Source: Bacteroidales bacterium (lineage in GTDB: Bacteria; Bacteroidota; Bacteroidia; Bacteroidales; FEN-979). Taken from it: 64,000 nt of DNA. The DNA lies in assembly GCA_028706295.1 (NCBI GenBank), contig JAQWBQ010000009.1, positions 8,110-72,109 on the forward strand, written 5' to 3'. This document shows, one piece after another, positions 51,685 through 64,000 of this stretch; position 1 is the stretch's first letter, and each line of letters starts with the position of its first letter. Both the position numbers and the translations under genes were made by a program. Below the pieces are notes generated by a model. That model was not told the DNA's origin and ran no database searches. It saw only the letters and a program-made list of their open reading frames with translations.

Positions 51685-52326
51685 CTACTTAAGTTGTTTA
51701 CAGAGAAATTTTCCCAATTGTTTTCCGGCTGATTCAAAGCATTCGGAAATCCTGAGTGTCGCATCATAAGCTTTTTTGTCAACCGAAACCCCTCCGACCG
51801 ACATTGAAGGTGAGGTCTTTGGTTTTACGCTTTCCATAAGAATAGTGGCAAGCACCTTGCCGGGGGTGGCGGTTTCAATCAGGTCGACTGAAAGGTCGAT
51901 GGAAGCAGATTTTGCGGTGCCCATGACAATGGTCTCTACACCCTGTTCCACGTAGGTTACATGGACGACCAGGGTGTATTTGGCTGAAGGATCGGAAACG
52001 CCGGAAAGTCCGCAATCTTTTGATTGTTTGTTAAAGTCCTCCTCGAAAGCCGGTTGATATTTTTCTGTTTTGGCCGCTTTCCATTTTTCAGCCCACATCT
52101 CTCCGGTACCAGGGTCTTTTGCATTTCTGTCGGCAATCCCTTTTTTCAGATAATCGGCTTCATTGTCGAATTTTCCGACCACCATGGCCGAATAATCGTA
52201 CTGGATGTTTATGGCTGACTGGCCTTTAAGGTCCGAGATGCTGCCTGTCTTAATTTTTTGCCCGAAGGTGGTCCCGGCTGAAATTATTAATGCCAGGAAA
52301 AAAAGTAATAAGAATGATTTTTTCAT
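51685..52326 (-). CDS. Secreted/periplasmic hypothetical protein
   Basis: Signal TFG|QK; own -7 element at 52365-52372; no recognisable catalytic motif. Confidence 0.75.
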   Translation of the reverse strand: MKKSFLLLFFLALIISAGTTFGQKIKTGSISDLKGQSAINIQYDYSAMVVGKFDNEADYLKKGIADRNAKDPGTGEMWAEKWKAAKTEKYQPAFEEDFNKQSKDCGLSGVSDPSAKYTLVVHVTYVEQGVETIVMGTAKSASIDLSVDLIETATPGKVLATILMESVKPKTSPSMSVGGVSVDKKAYDATLRISECFESAGKQLGKFLCKQLK

Positions 52327-52396: not shown

Positions 52397-53719
52397 TTAG
52401 TTTGAAACATTCCCGTTTTTTTCTCGGTTATCGATAAATTTAACCGGTTTCCGGCTCATTTCGGGGCTTTGCATTTTCAGAATTTTTGCCTCTGGTTCGA
52501 ATGAAAGGAGGGGTGCAACGCGCAGTTTGGCTCTGAAGTGGTCTTTGATATCTTTCTCTTTTTCTTCACCGATTCCCTTGCAACTCAGGTGGATCAGAAT
52601 TTCGTCCGTTCCGATCTGGTTCGTATAGACCTCCACGATGTAATTCGTCACGTATTCGATATTATCTAGAATGTCGTACAAAGCGGGAGGGAAAAGGGTT
52701 GTTCCTTTGTACTTGATCATCTGGTTTTTCCGACCGATGACCGGACCGAGTCGCATGGTGGTTCTTCCGCAGGAGCAAGGATCTTTGTAATGATGACAAA
52801 CATCTCCTGTTTTGAACCGGATCAGCGGCATGCCCTCAACGCCGAGGGTGGTTATCGTCACTTCTCCCAATTCGCCTTCTTTTACCGGTTGATCAAGGTC
52901 ATTCAGAAACTCGACAATGATTAGTTCCGGGTGATGGTGGCCGCCGCAGCCTTCGGTACATTCGGTGAAAGATGTTCCCATTTCGGTTGAGGCATAGGTA
53001 GAATAGAGTTTAATCGGCCATTTGTCGAAAATTTTCTTTCCGAGCGTATTCAGGGAGAGGTCTTTTTTTCGAAGTGGTTCTCCGATGCAGATTGCGCTTT
53101 TAATACTGCTGGAGCGGTAGTCAATGCCATGTTGTTCGGCGTAGTCAATGATTTTAAGGATGAAGGATGGGACGGTTACGATGGCGTTGGGTTTGATGCG
53201 TCCGATGGTATCCCACTGTAGCTCAGGTATCCCGTTTCCGACCCTGACGACGCTGGCCCCCAACATTCTGATACCGAGAAAATAAGCCAGGCCGGCCATG
53301 AAACGACGGTCGATGGTGGTCATTAACTGGTAAATGTCGGATGCGGAGCCACCCGCACAGGTAAAGGAGATGGCCTCATTGTATGCCAGGCGGTCCAGGT
53401 CTTTATCGGTCATGGCAAAAGTGACCGGATCCCCCAATGTTCCGGAAGTGGTTATATAATCGATGATCCGGTCAGCAGGAACACACAGGAAATCCCGGTT
53501 GTATTTTTGAAGGTCTTCCTTGTTGGTAACCGGGATTCTTTTCAGGTCGCTTACCGACCTGATCCGGTCCACGTCAATATGGTTCAAGGAAAACAGATTC
53601 CGGTAGAAGGGTGAATTTTGCCAGGCATAATTCAGGGCTTCCCGGAGTCGATGGTCCTGATAAGCGGCAATTTCCTCAAGCGGTTTCTGTTCAATTGCCG
53701 GGAAAAATAATTGATTCAT
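52397..53719 (-). CDS. Phenylacetate-CoA ligase (PaaK)-like adenylate-forming enzyme
   Basis: AWQNSPFYR, TTSGTLGDP, YASTEMG, IRFKTGD, GRKNQMIKYKG. Confidence 0.88.
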   Translation of the reverse strand: MNQLFFPAIEQKPLEEIAAYQDHRLREALNYAWQNSPFYRNLFSLNHIDVDRIRSVSDLKRIPVTNKEDLQKYNRDFLCVPADRIIDYITTSGTLGDPVTFAMTDKDLDRLAYNEAISFTCAGGSASDIYQLMTTIDRRFMAGLAYFLGIRMLGASVVRVGNGIPELQWDTIGRIKPNAIVTVPSFILKIIDYAEQHGIDYRSSSIKSAICIGEPLRKKDLSLNTLGKKIFDKWPIKLYSTYASTEMGTSFTECTEGCGGHHHPELIIVEFLNDLDQPVKEGELGEVTITTLGVEGMPLIRFKTGDVCHHYKDPCSCGRTTMRLGPVIGRKNQMIKYKGTTLFPPALYDILDNIEYVTNYIVEVYTNQIGTDEILIHLSCKGIGEEKEKDIKDHFRAKLRVAPLLSFEPEAKILKMQSPEMSRKPVKFIDNREKNGNVSN

Positions 53720-53742: not shown

Positions 53743-54432
53743 TTAAATTTTAATACCGATCATGATCTTAAAGACGGAGGTCTCAATGGTCTGACTTGGT
53801 TTGCTTTTATTGAAATTATCATATTTCATCTCTCCGAAACTGTATTGGGCGGAGAACAACATCACGCTGTACCGGATGTTCATTCCGATCTCATTTTGCA
53901 AAAAATTCATCCCGTACTTGGAGAAGTTGGATTCGCCGATCCCGTCCCATTCGTCATAATGATAGGCAAAGTTTGCATTGATCTTGTAAAAGATATCGAT
54001 CATCAGCCGGTCGACCGGATTGATGGTAAACACGGGACCGAATTTTTGACCTCCATACCAGTAGTAGTGGTCGGTCGGTTTGTTCGGATCGACCGGGTTG
54101 GTTGAATTGAACCACAGGGAAAGGAATGTGGCGTCGAGTCCGGCGCGCAGGTGGTTATTGGCAAACGCGGGCCCAAAATAGATCAGAAACCCCATATCGA
54201 AAGCCCCGCCGATCTTTGCAGGCAGGTAGTTTAACCCGGTGACTGACTGGTTTCCGGATGTGGGATAAACATGTTGTCCCAGGGCATAATTGCCGATCGG
54301 GAATACTGGTCCCAGGCTGAAGTAAAACCCGCTGTTAATCCGGTTTTTATTATAGGTTGGTTCATCCTGGGCATTCCCTGTCAGCGGTATCAGCAGGGCA
54401 AACAAAACGTAAATAATTGCAGCTCTTTTCAT
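53743..54432 (-). CDS. Hypothetical small outer-membrane beta-barrel protein
   Basis: Signal GNA|QD; alternating hydrophobic strands (GFYFSLG, FDMGFLIY, IGMNIRY, FKIMIGIKI); -7 element at 54454-54461. Confidence 0.55.
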   Translation of the reverse strand: MKRAAIIYVLFALLIPLTGNAQDEPTYNKNRINSGFYFSLGPVFPIGNYALGQHVYPTSGNQSVTGLNYLPAKIGGAFDMGFLIYFGPAFANNHLRAGLDATFLSLWFNSTNPVDPNKPTDHYYWYGGQKFGPVFTINPVDRLMIDIFYKINANFAYHYDEWDGIGESNFSKYGMNFLQNEIGMNIRYSVMLFSAQYSFGEMKYDNFNKSKPSQTIETSVFKIMIGIKI

Positions 54433-54513: not shown

Positions 54514-55599
54514 TCAGTGCGGGTAGTTATACCGGTCCATGAACAAGGTCAGTTTATTGGCAATGATTTCTTTATCGACTGATGAAAGTGTGAACTCATT
54601 TTTTTTAAAATCGGCATTGGAGCCCATGTAGTTTTTTATTTGACGCTGCAGATCTTCAGGAAAGGGATGACCCATTCCCGTGTAGAGATCCCGGAGAACA
54701 GAGACGGTATCTTTTTCAAGATCTTCAAACCTGATTTCGAAGAAATTACACGGTCTGATCAGGTTCCGGTCCTTTTCGATGGTATGGAGCAGAAACTCCA
54801 GGAACCCGGCAACCGGTTCCGTACTGAACCGGCACTTGAATTTTGTAAGTGCATTTTGTTTCTGAACAATATTCCACATGTTGATGGTAGAGGGCACAAC
54901 ATTGTAAGGATGCCGAAGGATGTGAATAAATTTTGCATCCGGGAAGCGTTCGGTCAGGAATTTGATGCGGAATGAGTTGAACGGATTTTTAGAGACGATG
55001 GTTCGGGAGTTACCCATCTGAAGTTTGGCAAAGTAACGAACCAGGTTTTCACTCCAGTTAACAAGGAGTTCATCGGCAGGTAAAAACGGCAGGTCATTTT
55101 TCAGGAAGTAAGAGGAAGAGGTCGGGAATACCAGTTTCTCCAGCGGGGAGTAGTTTGTGAGGCGGTAAATCGCGTACTCATCCTCCTGGGGTTCGTCCAT
55201 TCCGATCCTGACCATATCCATCGGGCGGTGCTCGTCGATCAGGGTTTTGAAGACCGGTTTGTAGTATTTATAGGACAAAAGAAAACTATCGGGTATGGCT
55301 ACCTGAAACAGGGTAGGGGCAAGCATGGAGGGATCCAGGCTCAGGAGTTTATGAAGGAGTGTGGAGCCGGTTCGCCAGTGACCGATTATGAAGATGGGAT
55401 TTCTGGGTGGGATCGCTTCAGCCAGTTCCTTTCCAAACCTGATTTTTTCAGCCGTTGCGAACAATGAGGACCAGACCGAGCTTTGAAAGAGGAAAAACAT
55501 CCGGGACAGTGTTGCCGGAGTATAAGAGATTCTGTTCCTGCGAAGTAAGCGGACAAGCTGGCCAAAAGTGATTCCGGCAGTCAGATAGGAATCTTTCAA
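54514..55599 (-). CDS. PAPS-dependent sulfotransferase
   Basis: 5'-PSB IFIIGHWRTGSTLLH, 3'-PB FIHILRHPYNVVPS, PQEDE, VSKNP, FEDL. Confidence 0.9.
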   Translation of the reverse strand: MKDSYLTAGITFGQLVRLLRRNRISYTPATLSRMFFLFQSSVWSSLFATAEKIRFGKELAEAIPPRNPIFIIGHWRTGSTLLHKLLSLDPSMLAPTLFQVAIPDSFLLSYKYYKPVFKTLIDEHRPMDMVRIGMDEPQEDEYAIYRLTNYSPLEKLVFPTSSSYFLKNDLPFLPADELLVNWSENLVRYFAKLQMGNSRTIVSKNPFNSFRIKFLTERFPDAKFIHILRHPYNVVPSTINMWNIVQKQNALTKFKCRFSTEPVAGFLEFLLHTIEKDRNLIRPCNFFEIRFEDLEKDTVSVLRDLYTGMGHPFPEDLQRQIKNYMGSNADFKKNEFTLSSVDKEIIANKLTLFMDRYNYPH

Positions 55600-55611
55600 G
55601 ATTGTCCTGAA

Positions 55612-55884
55612 TTATGATGGTTGCAGATTTCTTTGTTCCGTTATGAAGGCGGCGATGCTATTGACAGAACGGATCACTTCCCGGGCTAGGTTTTGATCGT
55701 TGATGCGAATACCATAAGTTCGCTGGATAGCCATAATGATTTCAATTGCATCGACCGAGTCAAGCGTCAGCGCGTTGCCTCCCCCAAAGAGAGGTTTTTC
55801 GTCATCCACCGCGGCAGGGTCTATATTTTCGATTGCCAGGGTAGACATGATCAGTTTTTTTATTTCAAGTTTCAATTCTTCCAT
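55612..55884 (-). CDS. Acyl carrier protein
   Basis: 90 aa, MEELKLEIKKLI..PLFGG..LDSVDAIE with the phosphopantetheine Ser. True start is ATG 55884, inside track ORF 55612-56034. Confidence 0.92.
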   Translation of the reverse strand: MEELKLEIKKLIMSTLAIENIDPAAVDDEKPLFGGGNALTLDSVDAIEIIMAIQRTYGIRINDQNLAREVIRSVNSIAAFITEQRNLQPS

Positions 55885-55889
55885 AGTGG

Positions 55890-56894
55890 TCAAACGGTCT
55901 TCGATAACTTCCTGAAAAAATTCTCTTCCACGTCGGCGCGGTCGCGGATCATATCGCCTAACTGTTTTAATTTTTCGGCGCCAAGGTCCCGGTTCTTGCC
56001 GATCCGGGCGGCAAAAAGTGAAATTTCCCTCCACCCGTCGCCGATAAGCATGAGTTCGGCCGAAAGATCCCGCAATTCGGACTTATTCAGGATTTCGGAT
56101 GCCTGCTGAAGAAAAGTGGCATAGATGTACCTGAATCCGGCCCCACCGGTTCCCTGATCTTCCAAAAGAATGTTGATCTTCATTATTTCGTGCGAAAGAT
56201 GTTCGGTATCGCGGGCGATGGCAGGCCATTCGAGGATCTTGCGGGAAAACATCCGCATTCCCCGGATACCGAGGAAGGGGATCGGGATTTTCAGCATGTT
56301 GAAGCAGGCTTTCCGGATGCCTCTCTCCACAGCCTTTTTCATATCGATTTCGGTCGGGATCCGGTCGAGGTGGTACAAAAAACCCTTTGGTGACATTTCA
56401 CCGCCGGCAAACCTTCCCTTTTGAAGCGATGTTGCTTCGAGTTCGACCATCTTCGGGAAATAGGCATCGCTGATAAGATATCGGGTTCCCTGCCGGCCGA
56501 CTACCACCATAAAATGGACATTGATATGGACCCGCTCCCAGGATGGCACGTAGTCAAGGTAGAAGAAATCGACCTGGCAGGCCGTCGGGATTTTCCGGTC
56601 GATAAGGTCATCAAGTGCAGTCATTCCCGATGCCGGATCTTTGAATGCGTAAGTTTTGAACTTCACACCCAGGCGTTTTTCGATATCCACGCGCATCTGC
56701 CCGGGCTTATTGCGAACAATAAAGGTCGGGAATGCAAAAGATTTCATCTTATGGAAGTAACCGAAAAAGATCCCGCCGGATATGCCGAAAACCAGGGGTT
56801 CGGTAATGTCCAGTCCACCAAAATTCAATAGTGATGTTATGGTCCCCGATTCGCAGTGGGCCGCCATCTTATGTTTAAAGTCGAGTTCCGTCAT
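55890..56894 (-). CDS. BtrH_N/DUF4872-family papain-like transacylase/peptidase
   Basis: FKHKMAAHCESG, EPLVFGISGGIFF, VDFFYLDY, VHFMVVVG, ISD, EQ-like GTGGAGFRYIYATFLQQA. Confidence 0.8.
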   Translation of the reverse strand: MTELDFKHKMAAHCESGTITSLLNFGGLDITEPLVFGISGGIFFGYFHKMKSFAFPTFIVRNKPGQMRVDIEKRLGVKFKTYAFKDPASGMTALDDLIDRKIPTACQVDFFYLDYVPSWERVHINVHFMVVVGRQGTRYLISDAYFPKMVELEATSLQKGRFAGGEMSPKGFLYHLDRIPTEIDMKKAVERGIRKACFNMLKIPIPFLGIRGMRMFSRKILEWPAIARDTEHLSHEIMKINILLEDQGTGGAGFRYIYATFLQQASEILNKSELRDLSAELMLIGDGWREISLFAARIGKNRDLGAEKLKQLGDMIRDRADVEENFFRKLSKTV

Positions 56895-57401
56895 CTAAGT
56901 CCGCTCCGAAATTTTGGTGAGCACCACATAGGGATTTTCGGTCTGATCCTGTATTACTTCGAGATGATCGGTACGATTTTCAAGGATCATGGCCGATTCA
57001 AACTGTTCTTTGTTTTTGATCAGCACGACCTGTAAAAGGTTTGCCAGAGGAACATTAAATACGCCTGCATAGCGGGAGAGCTCGGCAGCCGTCACCTCAG
57101 CAAAACCGGATGGATCCAGATGTTTCTTTACCCGTGATTTCCGGATGGCAGCCCGTGCTGCAAGCTCCGAAAGAGTCAGGTCTTCAAGTACCATGAAATA
57201 TTTCACAACGCTGATGGAACCCCTGATAAGCTGGTCTCTGAGTGCAGATTCAAGGTTTTTTTTCTTCAGAAAAAAATCATCCAGGTAATTGGCTGTGAGA
57301 TAGGATCCGGTTTGAATGGGACCGTACTTTCCGTCATCCTTTTCAACATAAAGAATCATCTGTTGATCAGGGCAATCCACAAATCCTTCTTTTTCTTTCA
57401 T
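56895..57401 (-). CDS. Hypothetical protein with C-terminal HTH-like segment
   Basis: ILYVEKDDGKY..TGS; LTLSELAARAAIRKSRVKKHL..ELSRYAGVFNVP. Start is ATG 57401; abuts the BtrH gene. Confidence 0.65.
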   Translation of the reverse strand: MKEKEGFVDCPDQQMILYVEKDDGKYGPIQTGSYLTANYLDDFFLKKKNLESALRDQLIRGSISVVKYFMVLEDLTLSELAARAAIRKSRVKKHLDPSGFAEVTAAELSRYAGVFNVPLANLLQVVLIKNKEQFESAMILENRTDHLEVIQDQTENPYVVLTKISERT

Positions 57402-57420
57402 ACCATGACCAGTAAGTGCT

Positions 57421-58608
57421 TTATTTACGCTTTGCAAAAATAACAATGCTGAAGAACATTGCCAAACCAAAAAAACCCATCAGTGAAAGGGTTCGGGGTA
57501 CGATATCACACAGGGTTCCGTTGCGGACGAACAGGTCAAGATAGTTGTCGATTCCCCATCGGAGGGGCGAAGCCAGACTGATTACCCGGATGGCCTCTGG
57601 CAACAGATGGACCGGCAAAAAGACGCCACTGATCACACCGAGCAGAACCACGATCACCGATCCGAACATGGCGGCTTGTCCATGGGTTGTGGCGACTGAG
57701 CCGATGATCATTCCGAAACCGATGGCTGCGAGCGCGGAGCCAAAGGTCGTAATGGCTATGGCAAGGTTGTTTGATCCGGTTTCCAGGGGCGGGAAACCAA
57801 AGAGCAGGGGAAACACCTGTTTTCCGATCCACAGGATCAACAAAAACTGCAGGAGGCAAACCAGGAAGTAGATGATCACTTTCCCTGAAAGGATCGACAG
57901 CAACCGTACAGGCAGCGTACGGAGCCGCAAATAACTTCCCTCGTTTTTTTCCGTGATAAGGCTTCCGGAAAGGGGTATCACGATGAAAAACATGGCAAAC
58001 AAGATGAATCCCGGAACATTGTTCTGGATGACATTGGGTACGATCGATTCCCGGTTGCGCGATGGGTAGAGGCAGGTCATGGGAGGAAGCGATTTCTGTT
58101 TCTGTTCGGCCATTACCCTGATCACCGAAGCAAGTTCTCCCGAAAGTCCGTCGATGATTTCGTTCATCGCAAGCCGGGCCTGAACACTTTTAATAAGGTA
58201 TTGAAGAGAATTCAGGATTGATGTTCTGTAACCCTGGTCCAGGGTCGGGTCCACCCAGATCCGGATGGTTGAATCGGGATGATCCAGATCGATTCCGAAT
58301 TTATATTTACCCTGAGCAATAAGACCGGAAGCCAGTTCCGGGGTAAGTGGCGCTTCAGGAACCTGGCGGACAACAGTAAAAAATCCCGATGAATCGAGCG
58401 CTTTGCAAACCTCGCGCGAAATGAGCGACGGTTTTTGGTCGACAACCAGAACCGATGTGCGTTCACGCTGGTATTTCAGCGCGTTTTCCTGTGCCAGTGT
58501 AACGACAAAAATCAGCAGAACCGGCATAAAAAAGAGAATGAACAGTCCCGGAATATCGCGAAGCAGGAGAAGCGCTTCCCTGACCAGTATTGATCGGAGT
58601 TTATGCAT
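57421..58608 (-). CDS. ABC-2 type transporter permease
   Basis: REALLLLRD, VVDQ, NVPGFILFAMFF, ITEKNEG..LRL, GVFLPV..PEAIR..SPLRWG. Confidence 0.9.
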   Translation of the reverse strand: MHKLRSILVREALLLLRDIPGLFILFFMPVLLIFVVTLAQENALKYQRERTSVLVVDQKPSLISREVCKALDSSGFFTVVRQVPEAPLTPELASGLIAQGKYKFGIDLDHPDSTIRIWVDPTLDQGYRTSILNSLQYLIKSVQARLAMNEIIDGLSGELASVIRVMAEQKQKSLPPMTCLYPSRNRESIVPNVIQNNVPGFILFAMFFIVIPLSGSLITEKNEGSYLRLRTLPVRLLSILSGKVIIYFLVCLLQFLLILWIGKQVFPLLFGFPPLETGSNNLAIAITTFGSALAAIGFGMIIGSVATTHGQAAMFGSVIVVLLGVISGVFLPVHLLPEAIRVISLASPLRWGIDNYLDLFVRNGTLCDIVPRTLSLMGFFGLAMFFSIVIFAKRK

Positions 58609-58630: not shown

Positions 58631-59710
58631 TCAATTCTTTCTGATTTCGATCAGGCTGATCGGGGAAATAGTAGGAATGACCCGGGAGCAGTGCAGGCCG
58701 GAATTTTCGATCAAACGCAGGAATTCTTCTTTCGTCCGTTCTTTTCCACCGGGCATGGTCGCAAGCATCTGTATATCGAGCAGTTTCGACAGGGAGGGTT
58801 CATTTCCCACCGGAACAACCATATCGATCACGAGGATCCGGGAATGATTGTCCATCCGGTCCGAAATATTTTTCAGAAGTTTCGTGCACAGATCATCATT
58901 CCAGTTATGAATGATGTTTTTAAGGATATAGAGGTCGGCTGACAGGGGTACTTCTTTGAAAAAATCACCGGTAATCAGGTTGATCCTGTCACTCAGCCCG
59001 TACCCTTCGATCAGGGCCGGCGCATTGGTGAGCGCTTCAGCCGTATCAAACAGGATCCCGCGTGTCTTGTCGGTTCCCGAAAGGATGTTTGACAGCAGAA
59101 ATCCTTCGCCTCCTCCGATATCGGCGATTACGGGGAACTTTGAAAAGTCGTAGGCAATCAGGATGGGATCCAGTCCGAGAAACGACAGGTTGGACATCGA
59201 TTTATCAAAGATACTGCTCTCATCCGGATGGTTCTTTAAATAGTCGTAAATACCCATGCCGTATTTATGAGAGAATGCATCATTTCCGCTCCTGACTGCG
59301 TGTTCCAGATCGCCGAGGAGGTTCCAGTTCACCGGACCCAGGTGGTGGAGGATCATATATCTCAGGGATTGCGGACCGTCGAGCAATCCACGGGAAAGGG
59401 AATTCAGTGCGAAACTTCCGTTGCTTTTTTGTTTAAATATTCCCACCCCGGCCAGGGCCCGCATCAGTCGGTATATGGCTTCAGGGTCGGCCTTTACCCT
59501 GTTTGCAATGTCACCTGAGGAGCGGGGTTTTTCCTCCAGATGCCTGGCAATATTAAGCTTCGCGGCAATATAAAGGCAGGGAAGTACCCAGAAGTTCTGA
59601 AATTGTTCATAGAGGACCACACTACCGGGAAAGGTCCGGCGGTTAAGCCTGATTAAAAAGGTGCGGAATCTATTGATGGCATTAATGAGCCAGGTGGGAG
59701 GAAGAATCAT
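58631..59710 (-). CDS. Small-molecule O-methyltransferase (Methyltransf_2 with dimerisation domain)
   Basis: YIAAKLNIA..LYR-like IYRLMRALAGVGIF, IADIGGGEG, GDFF, LKNIIHNW, GGKERT. Confidence 0.9.
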   Translation of the reverse strand: MILPPTWLINAINRFRTFLIRLNRRTFPGSVVLYEQFQNFWVLPCLYIAAKLNIARHLEEKPRSSGDIANRVKADPEAIYRLMRALAGVGIFKQKSNGSFALNSLSRGLLDGPQSLRYMILHHLGPVNWNLLGDLEHAVRSGNDAFSHKYGMGIYDYLKNHPDESSIFDKSMSNLSFLGLDPILIAYDFSKFPVIADIGGGEGFLLSNILSGTDKTRGILFDTAEALTNAPALIEGYGLSDRINLITGDFFKEVPLSADLYILKNIIHNWNDDLCTKLLKNISDRMDNHSRILVIDMVVPVGNEPSLSKLLDIQMLATMPGGKERTKEEFLRLIENSGLHCSRVIPTISPISLIEIRKN

Positions 59711-61515
59711 GCCAATACTTCTTCGTTCTGATGAAGCGGAAGTTTTTTTAATTCAAGTTCACATACTTCCAAATCCGAGATCAGTTTTTTCTTTTTATCG
59801 AACAAGGTTGTTTTCACTTGCGAAAACAGCTCTTTGTAGTATTGAATACCGTTGCAGAGGTTATCCCTGAAATCAGCGAAGTACTCCTGTTGTTTTTTCG
59901 TCCAGGGAAGAGAGGTCTCATTCATTTTCTTCCTGAGATAATCAATATAGATCGTCAGTTCCTTAATGAACATGTTAGGCCTGTCATTGCGGCTGATGAT
60001 GTTTATTTTACCGTAGATATGATCCACCATTTCCTTAAGTGTCATCACCTCTGAAAAATAGGCCATATTAGGTCCCGGACATATTGAAACACCTTTCTTT
60101 TCAACGCTGGTATCCAGTTCATTCACCAGAAGGGCTGAGGTGCCTAAGCCGACGCAGATACAGGATTTATTGACTATTTTACGGTATTCGGCCTGAAATT
60201 CATCATCGGGGAGACCACTGGCTTTTAATTCCTCAATTTTAAGTTTTTGATATTTCCGTGATGCGGTGCAGAGCGTAGGTTCTCCGAATTCATTATTGAG
60301 GGCGGCATATTTTTTATGACATGGATTTCCAGGTGTATTTTGATGGATATAGGTCTCTTTCTCTTTATCTTTGGTATTGCCTTTCAGATTATTGAATGGC
60401 ACACCCAGCGGGCTGATATCACTGATAAACAGATACTCTTCCCTGGCTTTGCAAAGCAGATCAAGGGTTTGCTCATCCACGTTGACCACTTCGGGAACCA
60501 ACAGGAAGGGTGTTCCCCAGCCCACGGAATCGATCTGGTACTGATCAGCCAGGAACTGGTGTTCTTCAAATGTACCAACGCCGCCTTGTGCAGTGATTTT
60601 AATTTCAAGCGCGTTTTCGGGGCAAGGTCGGTTTTTTGCTTTCAGGGCAACCTTAAGCAGTTCAAAAGTTTGGTAGATGAGGTCCTCACGGTTACGGTTG
60701 ATCTCTTCGAGTACCGGTCCAAGGAGGAAACCGTTCGTCGGAAAGGCATGCCCTCCGCAGTTTAAACCTGATTCGATGCGGTATTCAGAAACCCACAGGC
60801 CCTTTTTCGCGAGGTATTTTCCCTGGATCAGCGCCGACCGGTGGTCACTCACTTTAAGGGTTATTTTTTTCTTCAGGGTGAAATTCGTATCCGGATAGAA
60901 GTCATCAAAGGTCTCCAGGTAATTGTATAAGCGGGGACTCATCCCGGCCGATAATACAACAGATGAATTCAGGTCGCTGTTCACGAATCCACGCAAGGCA
61001 GCATGTCCGTCATTGTATTTAGCCGGAAGTTTTACATGATCCTTATAGTTTTCTTTATCCACTTTGGTCATGATATTCACATCGATGCTGCCCATGGAAA
61101 GATTTTCATGGATCCAATCTTTTAAATCGAGGTTATCCCAATCCTGTTTGAATTGTTCGAATTTCTGTTTAAGGGCTGAAGAATCCTGAAGAAGGTCAAT
61201 ATATTTCGAAAATTCACTGCTCTTCTGATCGCAGGTGGTTTTCAGTTCTTCAAATTTATCATGGGCGATTTTATTGACCATATTGAGATAGGCCGTGATC
61301 CGCTTTGCCCTGAAATCATCGATTTTTTTTGAGATTGCCTGAAATGGCAAGTCAAATTTTTTGCTGTAAAACGCTCTGAGTTTTTCCATTAACATATCAT
61401 CCAACAATGAAATCACGGATGAAATACCCAGATGAGCAACTTTTACCGGTGTATCTATGGAATATCCAATCCCAAGTACGGGGATATGGAATGAATGCGG
61501 GTTTATTTTATTCAT
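59707..61515 (-). CDS. Conserved hypothetical; probable FMN TIM-barrel oxidoreductase (FabK/NMO-like) with Cys-rich C-terminus
   Basis: IESGLNCGGH, ITAQGGVG, DSVGWGTPFL, ISPLGVP; PCHK..LCTAS..CICVGL..ICPGPN. Confidence 0.55.
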   Translation of the reverse strand: MNKINPHSFHIPVLGIGYSIDTPVKVAHLGISSVISLLDDMLMEKLRAFYSKKFDLPFQAISKKIDDFRAKRITAYLNMVNKIAHDKFEELKTTCDQKSSEFSKYIDLLQDSSALKQKFEQFKQDWDNLDLKDWIHENLSMGSIDVNIMTKVDKENYKDHVKLPAKYNDGHAALRGFVNSDLNSSVVLSAGMSPRLYNYLETFDDFYPDTNFTLKKKITLKVSDHRSALIQGKYLAKKGLWVSEYRIESGLNCGGHAFPTNGFLLGPVLEEINRNREDLIYQTFELLKVALKAKNRPCPENALEIKITAQGGVGTFEEHQFLADQYQIDSVGWGTPFLLVPEVVNVDEQTLDLLCKAREEYLFISDISPLGVPFNNLKGNTKDKEKETYIHQNTPGNPCHKKYAALNNEFGEPTLCTASRKYQKLKIEELKASGLPDDEFQAEYRKIVNKSCICVGLGTSALLVNELDTSVEKKGVSICPGPNMAYFSEVMTLKEMVDHIYGKINIISRNDRPNMFIKELTIYIDYLRKKMNETSLPWTKKQQEYFADFRDNLCNGIQYYKELFSQVKTTLFDKKKKLISDLEVCELELKKLPLHQNEEVLA

Positions 61516-61553: not shown

Positions 61554-63974
61554 CTAAAACTGGATTCTCCAGGTTCCCATAGGGAAAAAGACCATGTTGA
61601 AAAAATCCCTGATCTCTCCGGTTTTCGGGTCGATCCGTTGCATGGAGATGTTGGTGAAGGCGGTACGATATTGAAGGTCTACGGAAAATTCGATGTTGTA
61701 CCCGGGCAGGTTTCTGCGGATTCCGAACCTGAAAGCGATCCTTTTATATTCGGGATACCGCGGAATATAAGCCTGTTGCCAGTCGTAAACCGCTCCGCCG
61801 GTGGCTGTTGTGGCCTCTACATCATAGGGCACATAAGGACTTCCGCCGGTCCAGGTAGCCCGAAGTCCGAACGACATGACTCCCCATTTTCGTTTTCCCA
61901 TCACGAATTCATATCCGCCCGCGGCATTCAGCGCGTAGTTTACGTTGAATGCCGATGATCTTGATGCACCATCCGAACCAAGGTATCCGGAGTTGAACAG
62001 CGAGGCAGTTATAAGGAAATAGTAATTCTTCCTGAAGAAATGTTCGAAGGTGAACTCGATGCCATAATTATGGCCGGTGCCCTGATTTACCAGGCTGTCG
62101 GCATATTGCCGGTCGATGAAAAAATCATGACCCTGGTTGCTGAGTGCATAAGAGGGAATGGATTCTTTTACCGGGATATCGTACAAATACTGGTAGTACA
62201 ATTCGGTTCTGAACCTGAGGTCTTTATTGATCAGGTAGTTATATCCCAGGGCGCATTGAGCGCTCCGTGAAAAATCCAGGTTAAGATTTGGTTGAAAGGT
62301 CGTTCCGTCGCTCAAAGGACTTAAAATAAAATAGATCACACGGGGTTGCAATTGGCTGTAAAGTCCGGCTCCGAAGTCAAGGGCATGTTTTTCGGCGATA
62401 TCCCATTCAAACCCGAATCGCGGCTCAATGCTCCAGGAGTTGTTCAGCGACAGCCAGGCACCGTAAAGTCCAAGGGTGGCCGAAAACCGTTCGCTTGCGC
62501 GATGGTGCCACTGCGAAAACCCGCGTAACATCGACATGAATTCATCCGACCGGGTATGGACCACAAACCTGCCCTTCGACATGGCGCTATCGGCGAACGA
62601 CATCTGAAAGAAATCGAGCGATAATCCGCTGTTCAGGACATTCGCGGCTGAGAATTTCCGGGTGATCTGCGAGGAAAATGAGTATTTAAATTCGGTGGAA
62701 CGTTCGCCGGCCCAGGGCGAAGGGGTTTGCTGAACATTTGAGAAGGTATCGATCTTTGTCCGGGTTTCTGAAGCGACCAGGTACAATATGTTTTTCCAAA
62801 GTATCTCTTTTTTCAGAAGGATTTGATGGGAAATTCCGAGAACCCCGATATCGGAACCATTCGAAAGATCCTCTCCATAATCGGGGAAGAGCCAGTCGCC
62901 GGGATCTTTATCGCTGTCGAAGAGATTTATGGCGCTCAGTCCGCCGATACCGGTCAGGGTAAAGGTGCCGGCTTTCCGGGTCGGGATGGTGACTTTCAGG
63001 TTAAGATCCTGATATTTCGGGATGATTCCGGTATTGATACCGAACAAGCTCAGGAATTGAAGGGGAGAATACCGGTATGCCACGAGGTACGATGAGCCAT
63101 TCGATTTCGAAATGGGTCCTTCGGCGCCGAATTCCAGGCCGTTCCAGCCGATTTCGAACCAGTACCGTCGTTTTTCGGTGTTCCCGTTCCGCATCCTGAG
63201 GTCGAAGATCCCTGCGAGTGTATTGCCGTACTGAGCCGGAAAAGCTCCCGTGAGGAAATCGGAATTGGTGATCAGGTTGTTGTTGAGGATGGTCACAGGC
63301 CCCCCGGTGGTTCCGACTGCCGCGAAATGGTTGGGATTTGGGATCTCCATATCATCGATGCGCCATTGCAGCCCTGCCGGTGAGTTGCCCCTGACGATGA
63401 TGTCATTCCGGTTGTCGATGCCGCTGGTAACCCCGGCAAAGTTGGCGACCATCCGGGCGGGGTCGTTGTAGCTTCCTGCATATCGGAATGTCTCATCGAC
63501 ACTGAACGACCGGATGCTGACGGTCGCCATTTTATTGATGGATTCATTTTTTTGATAGTCAGCCCTGATTTCAACCTCCGGTGCGTGCTGTGGCCGCTCT
63601 TCCAGGTACACCGTCAGCGAGGTCTCTTTCCCGGTCGTAACAATGAGCGGTTCTGTTATCGTAGTGGCATAGCCCACAAAGGAGATTTTCAACCGGTATT
63701 GTCCGATTTTCAGGCGCTGAATGCGGAATTTGCCCAGGGTATCTGTGGTAGTGCCGATCAAAGGATCGGAATCCGTGATGATGACCGTTGCTCCTGGTAA
63801 AGGTTTAAGGGTTTGATTGTCGAGAACCGTCCCGGCAATTGCGGACCGGAGCACCTGCTGACCGTTCAGTTCACGAGAAGACCAGGAACAAAGCAGGATC
63901 AGGAGCAAAAACTGGAAAAACGTGGCCCTGAAGGGCAAAATCCGGAATTGATATTTCAGCAGGCTGCATCTCAT
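61554..63974 (-). CDS. TonB-dependent receptor with N-terminal carboxypeptidase-regulatory-like domain
   Basis: Signal LNG|QQ; GTVLD..PLPGATV; plug DPARMV..GV..NDIIVRGNSP..NPNHF; C-terminal Phe (WRIQF). ATG 63974 (TTG 63986 possible). Confidence 0.9.
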   Translation of the reverse strand: MRCSLLKYQFRILPFRATFFQFLLLILLCSWSSRELNGQQVLRSAIAGTVLDNQTLKPLPGATVIITDSDPLIGTTTDTLGKFRIQRLKIGQYRLKISFVGYATTITEPLIVTTGKETSLTVYLEERPQHAPEVEIRADYQKNESINKMATVSIRSFSVDETFRYAGSYNDPARMVANFAGVTSGIDNRNDIIVRGNSPAGLQWRIDDMEIPNPNHFAAVGTTGGPVTILNNNLITNSDFLTGAFPAQYGNTLAGIFDLRMRNGNTEKRRYWFEIGWNGLEFGAEGPISKSNGSSYLVAYRYSPLQFLSLFGINTGIIPKYQDLNLKVTIPTRKAGTFTLTGIGGLSAINLFDSDKDPGDWLFPDYGEDLSNGSDIGVLGISHQILLKKEILWKNILYLVASETRTKIDTFSNVQQTPSPWAGERSTEFKYSFSSQITRKFSAANVLNSGLSLDFFQMSFADSAMSKGRFVVHTRSDEFMSMLRGFSQWHHRASERFSATLGLYGAWLSLNNSWSIEPRFGFEWDIAEKHALDFGAGLYSQLQPRVIYFILSPLSDGTTFQPNLNLDFSRSAQCALGYNYLINKDLRFRTELYYQYLYDIPVKESIPSYALSNQGHDFFIDRQYADSLVNQGTGHNYGIEFTFEHFFRKNYYFLITASLFNSGYLGSDGASRSSAFNVNYALNAAGGYEFVMGKRKWGVMSFGLRATWTGGSPYVPYDVEATTATGGAVYDWQQAYIPRYPEYKRIAFRFGIRRNLPGYNIEFSVDLQYRTAFTNISMQRIDPKTGEIRDFFNMVFFPMGTWRIQF

Positions 63975-64000
63975 AACGGATTGCAAGGTTACAGATTTTT

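Follow-up and report, generated by a model that had tools for sequence, protein, structure and literature searches.

DarH3, a carrier protein and a sulfotransferase of probable Stf type at the distal end of a flexirubin-type gene cluster in an uncultured Bacteroidales bacterium

The gene triad, its conservation and its losses

The locus lies in a 64,000-nt stretch of DNA, hereafter the window (contig JAQWBQ010000009.1, positions 8,110 to 72,109 of the forward strand; assembly GCA_028706295.1), from what appears to be an uncultured, Prolixibacteraceae-like Bacteroidales bacterium, taken to be an anaerobe. Three consecutive genes on its minus strand encode a BtrH-related acyltransferase (DarH3), a stand-alone acyl carrier protein (ACP), and a sulfotransferase (ST) that depends on 3'-phosphoadenosine 5'-phosphosulfate (PAPS). 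With a small DarG-like gene, DarG3, in front of them, they form the distal end, that of FlxY, of an aryl-polyene pigment-lipid cluster of the flexirubin type (flxA...flxY).

55890..56894, minus strand: DarH3, BtrH-related acyltransferase of 334 residues, TGA stop; Pfam BtrH_N (8e-37) and DUF4872 (3.5e-43)
55612..55884, minus strand: stand-alone ACP of 90 residues, ATG to TAA; PP-binding (7e-7)
54514..55599, minus strand: PAPS-dependent ST of 361 residues, TTG start, predicted to be of the mycobacterial Stf type; Sulfotransfer_3 (1e-30)

The DarH3 and ACP genes are separated by 5 nt, and those of the ACP and ST by 12 nt. A first-pass annotation, made from the DNA alone, had described this arrangement with its LDSV motif in the ACP, and the exact coordinates, the Pfam matches and the intact motifs all agree with it. 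Residues 13-17 of DarH3 read HCESG, the codon of Cys14 being at 56853-56855. The ACP carries LDSV at residues 41-44, within LDSVD, with the phosphopantetheine Ser43 encoded at 55756-55758, and scores 59.8 bits as a PRK09184-type phosphopantetheine-binding protein. In the ST, the 5'-phosphosulfate-binding loop is GHWRTGST (residues 73-80; 55360-55383) and the 3'-phosphate-binding element is R229...S237 (54889-54915). The HCESG and the two PAPS-binding motifs that had been noted earlier are therefore present and, like the ACP motif, invariant or nearly so in alignments of 50-81 homologues: H13, C14, E15, H127 and D143 of DarH3 are invariant in 52 homologues, and L41, D42 and S43 of the ACP are kept in at least 90% of 50. 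The TTG start of the ST is supported by the conservation of its N-terminus, with a consensus MKDSYLTAG in which Y5 and G9 are invariant. DarH3, the ACP and the ST are real genes, far beyond chance.

Conservation was followed in 36 genomes of the genus and, more widely, with an ST profile searched against 185,579 species genomes, which returned 80 loci; an ST search returned 808 homologous protein clusters. A further sample was ascertained through DarH, from an even draw of 300 genomes of the order that gave 16 informative loci. The order DarG3-DarH3-ACP-ST is kept in 49 of the 54 ST loci of the Bacteroidota-type clade, with median gaps in these linked loci of 18 nt (DarG3-DarH3), 41 nt (DarH3-ACP) and 32 nt (ACP-ST). 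DarG3 directly precedes DarH3 in 49/49, and the ST gene follows the ACP gene immediately in 48/49, an O-methyltransferase gene standing between the two in the remaining locus (L129). Starting from DarH3 instead, the ST comes directly after the ACP in 13 of the 16 loci. The triad is thus a conserved functional unit from either side, in line with the joint action that the first-pass annotation had inferred, and chance adjacency of its genes is ruled out by these data. The recognised genes that flank the cassette vary (at least five kinds downstream and eight upstream in the ST-ascertained loci). Since the order is kept despite these differing flanks, the cassette is old and selection acts on it as a unit, although the ST is sometimes lost from it.

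The losses are seen within the genus, where the gene order is B12rSAM-unk128-[OMP810]-unk602-OMT-ABC2-DarG3-DarH3-ACP-[ST]-[barrel]-FlxY (B12rSAM, B12-binding radical S-adenosylmethionine (SAM) protein; OMP810, outer-membrane protein; OMT, O-methyltransferase; ABC2, ATP-binding cassette (ABC) permease of the ABC-2 type). A DarH3 orthologue is found in 35 of the 36 genomes and an ST orthologue in 27; where one contig carries the two, they lie about 300 nt apart. In the nine genomes that miss the ST, DarG3-DarH3-ACP is intact in the seven whose junction was read; the ACP and FlxY genes are 10-31 nt apart where the two abut, and no ST remnant was found in the longer ACP-FlxY spacers of these seven junctions. 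The ST is 52-55% identical within the genus, versus 75-83% for DarH3, the ACP and FlxY, and the O-methyltransferase is likewise faster-evolving. OMP810 follows the ST closely, with an orthologue in 25/27 ST-positive versus 0/9 ST-negative genomes. In the window the OMP810 and ST genes are six genes apart, while in other families they are nearly adjacent (ST-B12rSAM-unk128-OMP810). An independent co-loss of both is suggestive, not proven, because the DarH3 tree on which the ST losses are placed is poorly resolved (five changes on the best tree, one forced by well-supported branches). The comparative evidence shows the ST to be dispensable, and sulfation would therefore not be an obligatory activation step before release.

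A natural unlinking is seen in G458, a genome from a different family of the order, whose ST orthologue (38% identity) stands apart from DarH3-ACP. There, the ST gene lies beside a putative NAD-dependent epimerase gene (GxxGxxG; L089:6727-7812), and DarH3-ACP is followed by a gene for a ribosomal protein L31-like product (L090:9350-10349), these neighbours being named from N-terminal sequence only.

Enzyme families and cluster context

DarH3 belongs to the NCBIfam family DarH_acyl (NF053550; 324.7 bits, above the equivalog cut-off of 300). Searched as a single sequence against the PDB it returns no match, and a fold search was needed to relate it to known structures. Its AlphaFold2 model (mean predicted local distance difference test score, pLDDT, 90.0) is matched by Foldseek to AziU3/U2 (TM-score 0.66-0.68, E-value 2e-11), CtaG (0.64-0.69) and CcbD (0.61-0.66), the last being a structure crystallised with its peptidyl carrier protein, and a profile alignment places H127 and D143 on H128 and D144 of CtaG. 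CtaG, BtrH and AsbE are ligases of the papain-like kind, with a Cys-His-Asp triad, whose donors are bound to carrier proteins; BtrH and AsbE act on free acceptors (PMC12865890). DarH3 shares with BtrH, CtaG, CcbD and AsbE a papain-like N-terminal and a helical C-terminal domain, the triad, and a carrier protein encoded next to it. The family members known so far make amides from amine acceptors, whereas an ester would be expected for DarH if the product is flexirubin-like, and DarH always travels with a small DarG or DarG-like protein. From the CtaG/CcbD fold of the model, the triad and the carrier-protein precedent, DarH3 very probably off-loads the adjacent ACP through an acyl-cysteine intermediate. 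The first-pass annotation had the BtrH-like enzyme transferring a sulfated acyl group to an acceptor in place of a thioesterase; the fold and triad are indeed those of off-loading transacylases, but the sulfated donor is not required, as the ST is dispensable.

The best structural match deserves a separate comment. AziU3/U2 is described as an aziridine synthase that acts by sulfate displacement (PMC12559475), on a sulfated intermediate made by an ST. Its sequence similarity to DarH3 is marginal (E-values 0.016-0.017), and AziU2/U3 is structurally similar to CtaG and functionally unrelated to it (PMC12865890). A DarG profile searched against the PDB for an AziU2-like partner gave weak matches to XRE/HipB-type helix-turn-helix proteins and designed repeats, and no AziU2 chain.

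For the ST, the point of comparison in the first-pass annotation was the CurM/OLS module, to which the triad was likened as a split version. In CurM and OLS, an ST sulfates an ACP-tethered beta-hydroxyacyl group before a thioesterase releases it. As there, a Sulfotransfer_3 PAPS-dependent ST is encoded here right after a carrier protein, with an off-loading enzyme in the unit; here, however, these are separate proteins and not domains of one polypeptide, and the off-loading enzyme is an upstream Cys transacylase and not a downstream thioesterase. The ST itself does not support the comparison. Foldseek analysis of its AlphaFold2 model (pLDDT 87.7) reports Stf9 (TM-score 0.70, E-value 4e-13) and Stf1 (0.60), versus 0.40 (E-value 2.8e-7) for the CurM ST, which is the level of tyrosylprotein sulfotransferases, and 0.39 for the OLS ST. 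An ST profile searched against PDB sequences ranks 2z6v and 2zq5 above CurM (1.6e-10) and OLS (3.2e-10), and in a single-sequence search the CurM ST aligns at residues 198-319 only.

The phylogeny that had been proposed as a check, CurM versus Stf3 and other small-molecule types, comes out on the Stf3, free-lipid, side. All DarH-linked STs, with five unlinked ones, fall in one clade (100% support) that is sister to a clade of Mycobacterium and Planctomycetota. The mycobacterial relatives are 34-36% identical to the ST over residues 6-359 and sit directly behind a cytochrome P450 of 487-489 residues resembling cyp128; since stf3 adjoins cyp128 in one operon (PMC7404182), they appear to occupy the stf3 position. 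Many ST homologues carry an automatic JGI label with the Stf3 function or name. By fold, sequence and tree, the ST is thus predicted to be of the mycobacterial Stf type, acting on free lipids, and not a member of the CurM/OLS clade. It shares with Stf3 (sulfomenaquinone), Stf9 (PDB 2z6v) and Stf1 (PDB 2zq5) the fold, including an N-terminal helical extension, and the PAPS motifs. It differs from them in forming a separate well-supported clade, in standing by an ACP in a polyketide-like pigment cluster, and in having no P450 beside it: Pfam and NCBIfam scans of the cluster genes report none. Nor does a thioesterase gene ever adjoin the ST gene, which is followed by those of a beta-barrel protein, FlxY, a B12 radical SAM enzyme or OMP810. 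The likening of the triad to a CurM/OLS module is not supported. An adenosine 5'-phosphosulfate (APS) kinase for PAPS supply is encoded in the genome. As a correlate of the ST it is uninformative, being found in nearly all genomes of the genus with or without an ST.

The cluster context is an addition to the first-pass annotation, which had recorded neither the DarG-like gene upstream, nor FlxY downstream, nor the flexirubin-type cluster itself. The assignment follows from the NCBIfam identities of the neighbours and from the flxA-to-flxY layout of a relative. The gene upstream of DarH3 scores 47.7 bits against DarG_fam, below the cut-off of 70, and its position is constant in all linked loci. 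An 11-kb contig of the same genome (C49) encodes the tyrosine ammonia-lyase FlxA (826 bits, cut-off 700), FlxB (384 bits, cut-off 340) and two further DarG-DarH pairs, whose DarH proteins reach 411 and 386 bits, together with a ketosynthase (KS), an ACP, a B12 radical SAM enzyme and ABC transporter genes. The DarG3-DarH3 pair is divergent, being 36-38% identical to these other two. In the relative (G427, labelled as an uncultured Prolixibacteraceae metagenome-assembled genome, MAG), where orthologues are 74-96% identical, the stretch between FlxA and FlxY, some 67 kb, lies on a single strand of one contig, broken by about 12 kb of opposite-strand genes, and includes LolA2_flexi, LolB2_flexi, pairs of KS and chain length factor (KS/CLF pairs), and thioesterases. 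A 607-residue protein (L094:1245-3068) with a [FeFe]-hydrogenase-like N-terminal part and a C-terminal part of the methyl-accepting chemotaxis signalling type borders this opposite-strand stretch.

The cluster resembles the flx-dar clusters of Chitinophaga pinensis and Flavobacterium johnsoniae and the dar genes of Azoarcus sp. BH72 by its FlxA, FlxB, FlxY, LolA2/LolB2 and KS/CLF pairs, and by a pair of genes for a small and a BtrH-like protein followed by ABC transporter and ACP genes. The Azoarcus genes comprise darD (hypothetical), darE (BtrH-like), darF and darI (ABC transporter) and darC (ACP) (PMC3949708), and C. pinensis FlxY is reported to have 4-coumarate-CoA ligase activity in vitro (PMC3992019). 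The cluster described here differs by its third, divergent DarG-DarH pair with an ACP and an ST of its own, by the B12 radical SAM enzymes that accompany it, by having no DarB above cut-off in the genome, and by its hosts, which are Bacteroidales known from MAGs and presumed to be anaerobic. A term search of PMC3949708 and PMC3992019 finds no mention of a sulfotransferase, and a literature search found none linked to flexirubin or aryl-polyene clusters. The earlier impression that the arrangement is undescribed therefore stands, and the cassette is an undescribed variant of the known flexirubin-type pathway.

Acyl transfer, sulfation and their order

The explanation that we favour, with a probability of about one half, is that DarH3, together with DarG3, carries out an ACP-dependent acyl transfer, and that the Stf-type ST sulfates the lipid product as a dispensable tailoring step. 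The stand-alone ACP would carry an acyl intermediate of the pathway, possibly a 4-coumarate-primed aryl-polyenoyl or related chain, with FlxY as its presumptive activating ligase. DarH3, with its papain-like Cys14-His127-Asp143 triad and its small partner DarG3, would take this acyl group from the ACP as an acyl-Cys and pass it to a free hydroxyl or amine acceptor, off-loading the carrier protein in place of a thioesterase. The Stf3/Stf9-type ST would use PAPS to O-sulfate a phenolic or alcohol hydroxyl of the released hydrophobic product, yielding an anionic sulfated pigment lipid that the ABC-2 transporter, LolA2/LolB2 and OMP810 would handle and export. Sulfation would then be an optional tailoring, and not a chemical activation required for release.

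Several points weigh against this explanation. The acyl substrate, the acceptor, the sulfation site and the order of the steps are ones that we infer. No DarB scores above cut-off in the genome (best 72 bits versus 550; DarA was not searched for), so that the host may not produce the canonical dialkylresorcinol acceptor. The tight and ancient adjacency of the ST and ACP genes would be equally expected if the ST acts on ACP-bound cargo, and homology to Stf3 is compatible with a carrier-bound substrate. Finally, the best structural match of DarH3, AziU3/U2, displaces sulfate, which makes a leaving-group role conceivable.

On the acceptor side, a resorcinol part may be lacking or come from another route, as far as contigs C91 and C49 of the genome go. 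The relative G427 has only a weak StlD/DarB-family ketosynthase III (104 bits versus 450). Its gene (L093:15618-16775) lies beside those of two enoyl-CoA hydratases, a hydroxyacyl-CoA dehydrogenase and B12 radical SAM enzymes. NF053538, taken as a model for DarA, proved to be an unrelated family and matched nothing.

The order of the two reactions could be inverted, the ST sulfating cargo tethered to the ACP, for instance the phenolic hydroxyl of 4-coumaroyl- or aryl-polyenoyl-S-ACP, or a beta-hydroxyl, before DarH3 transfers the sulfated acyl to the acceptor. The position of the ST right behind the ACP in all but one of the 49 linked loci, at a median of 32 nt, would be well explained, as would the monophyly of an ST clade almost confined to DarH-ACP contexts, and the CurM and OLS STs, whose substrates are ACP-bound, are detectable Sulfotransfer_3 relatives at the E-values given above. 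However, the ST groups with stand-alone Stf enzymes, of which Stf3 sulfates free hydroxylated menaquinone. DarH3 and the ACP persist without the ST, so that DarH3 cannot require a sulfated donor, and in G458 the ST has left DarH3-ACP for a different neighbourhood that is glycan-like. Altogether, sulfation of the ACP-bound cargo seems unlikely. A broader version, in which BtrH-fold enzymes and STs are recurring partners and DarH3/DarG3 act on a sulfated ACP-borne intermediate whose sulfate is either kept or displaced, is still more doubtful; if true, it would make this partnership a split, trans-acting counterpart of the ACP-ST-release module in many Bacteroidales species.

The sulfate might instead be a leaving group, lost either by decarboxylative elimination, as in CurM/OLS, or by displacement, as in AziU3/U2. 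Once the ST had activated a hydroxyl, DarH3 or another cluster enzyme would form a C=C bond, a ring or an ether, and the final product would be devoid of sulfate. AziU3/U2, as the top structural match of DarH3 (TM-score 0.66-0.68, E-value 2e-11), provides a precedent for a BtrH-fold protein that works with a sulfotransferase. Yet DarH3 retains the full Cys-His-Asp transacylase triad and its own ACP, the ST falls outside the CurM clade, can be dispensed with while the backbone genes are retained, and has neither a thioesterase nor a decarboxylating partner beside it, and the similarity of AziU2/U3 to CtaG does not extend to function (PMC12865890), all of which render this route very improbable. 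Least credible of all is an ST that acts on a lipid outside the pathway, such as hydroxylated menaquinone or another envelope lipid, and is merely co-regulated with the cluster: the JGI Stf3 label, the near mycobacterial relatives in the stf3 position by a cyp128-like P450 and the co-variation with an outer-membrane protein would fit, but no P450 or other evident hydroxylase is adjacent, and the fixed place of the ST after DarH3-ACP across families is poorly explained by co-regulation.

Flexirubin-type pigments and aryl-polyene lipids rank with the most widespread specialised lipids of bacteria, and to our knowledge their late steps (off-loading, the role of DarG/DarH, export) still await testing. 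Sulfation as a tailoring of the released product, which we favour, predicts that many uncultured, presumably anaerobic Bacteroidales make a sulfated pigment lipid not yet described, and the co-variation of the ST with OMP810 suggests that such a lipid would need its own envelope handling. The cassette also offers a compact four-gene system for addressing the function of DarG/DarH and whether an Stf-type ST can use carrier-bound cargo.

Neighbouring genes

The genes around the triad in the window are as follows.

56895..57470, minus strand: DarG3, small DarG-like protein; DarG_fam 47.7 bits and flexirubin_DarG 49.8 bits, both under cut-off
53743..54432, minus strand: barrel gene, product of 229 residues with signal peptide, presumed outer-membrane beta-barrel; variable accessory gene, in 17 of the 49 linked loci
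52397..53719, minus strand: FlxY, flexirubin starter ligase (4-coumarate-CoA ligase type, PaaK-like); NCBIfam FlxY_rubin 714 bits, cut-off 520
51685..52326, minus strand: lipoprotein-like protein of 213 residues, which ends the cluster; syntenic after FlxY in most genus members
57421..58608, minus strand: ABC-2 type transporter permease; ABC2_membrane_3 (1.4e-29)
58631..59710, minus strand: O-methyltransferase, tailoring enzyme; Methyltransf_2 (6.5e-44) and dimerisation domain
59707..61515, minus strand: unk602, conserved protein of 602 residues; orthologues 61-83% identical within the genus
61554..63986, minus strand: OMP810, outer-membrane protein of 810 residues; N-terminal CarboxypepD_reg (PF13620, 3e-16)

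DarG3 has two candidate starts. An open reading frame begun at TTG 57470 shares 50 nt with the end of the ABC-2 permease gene, while ATG 57401 lies 20 nt past the permease stop and gives 168 residues. The latter is the likelier start, because many orthologue matches are 166-170 residues long. The DarG3 profile reports a weak similarity to XRE/HipB-type helix-turn-helix proteins. In 32 of the 49 linked loci, the recognised gene that precedes DarG3 is that of the ABC-2 permease. Pfam and NCBIfam return no family match for the 229-residue presumed barrel, the 213-residue lipoprotein-like protein or unk602. Elsewhere in the window lie an exopolysaccharide locus and housekeeping genes.

Upstream of the window (C98), a 423-residue B12-binding radical SAM protein (L004:2612-3883) is encoded by the most conserved gene of the locus, with identities of 87-100% within the genus and of 59-77% between families. 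Behind it there is always unk128, a protein of 128 residues without a family. In an unclassified MAG (L145), the gene of the B12-binding radical SAM protein adjoins that of an ST homologue, with no DarH-ACP there. The same cluster also encodes a 1283-residue fusion of an MMPL/RND-type transporter, a PlsC-type acyltransferase and a SAM methyltransferase (L004:8879-12730; C98:78878-82729).

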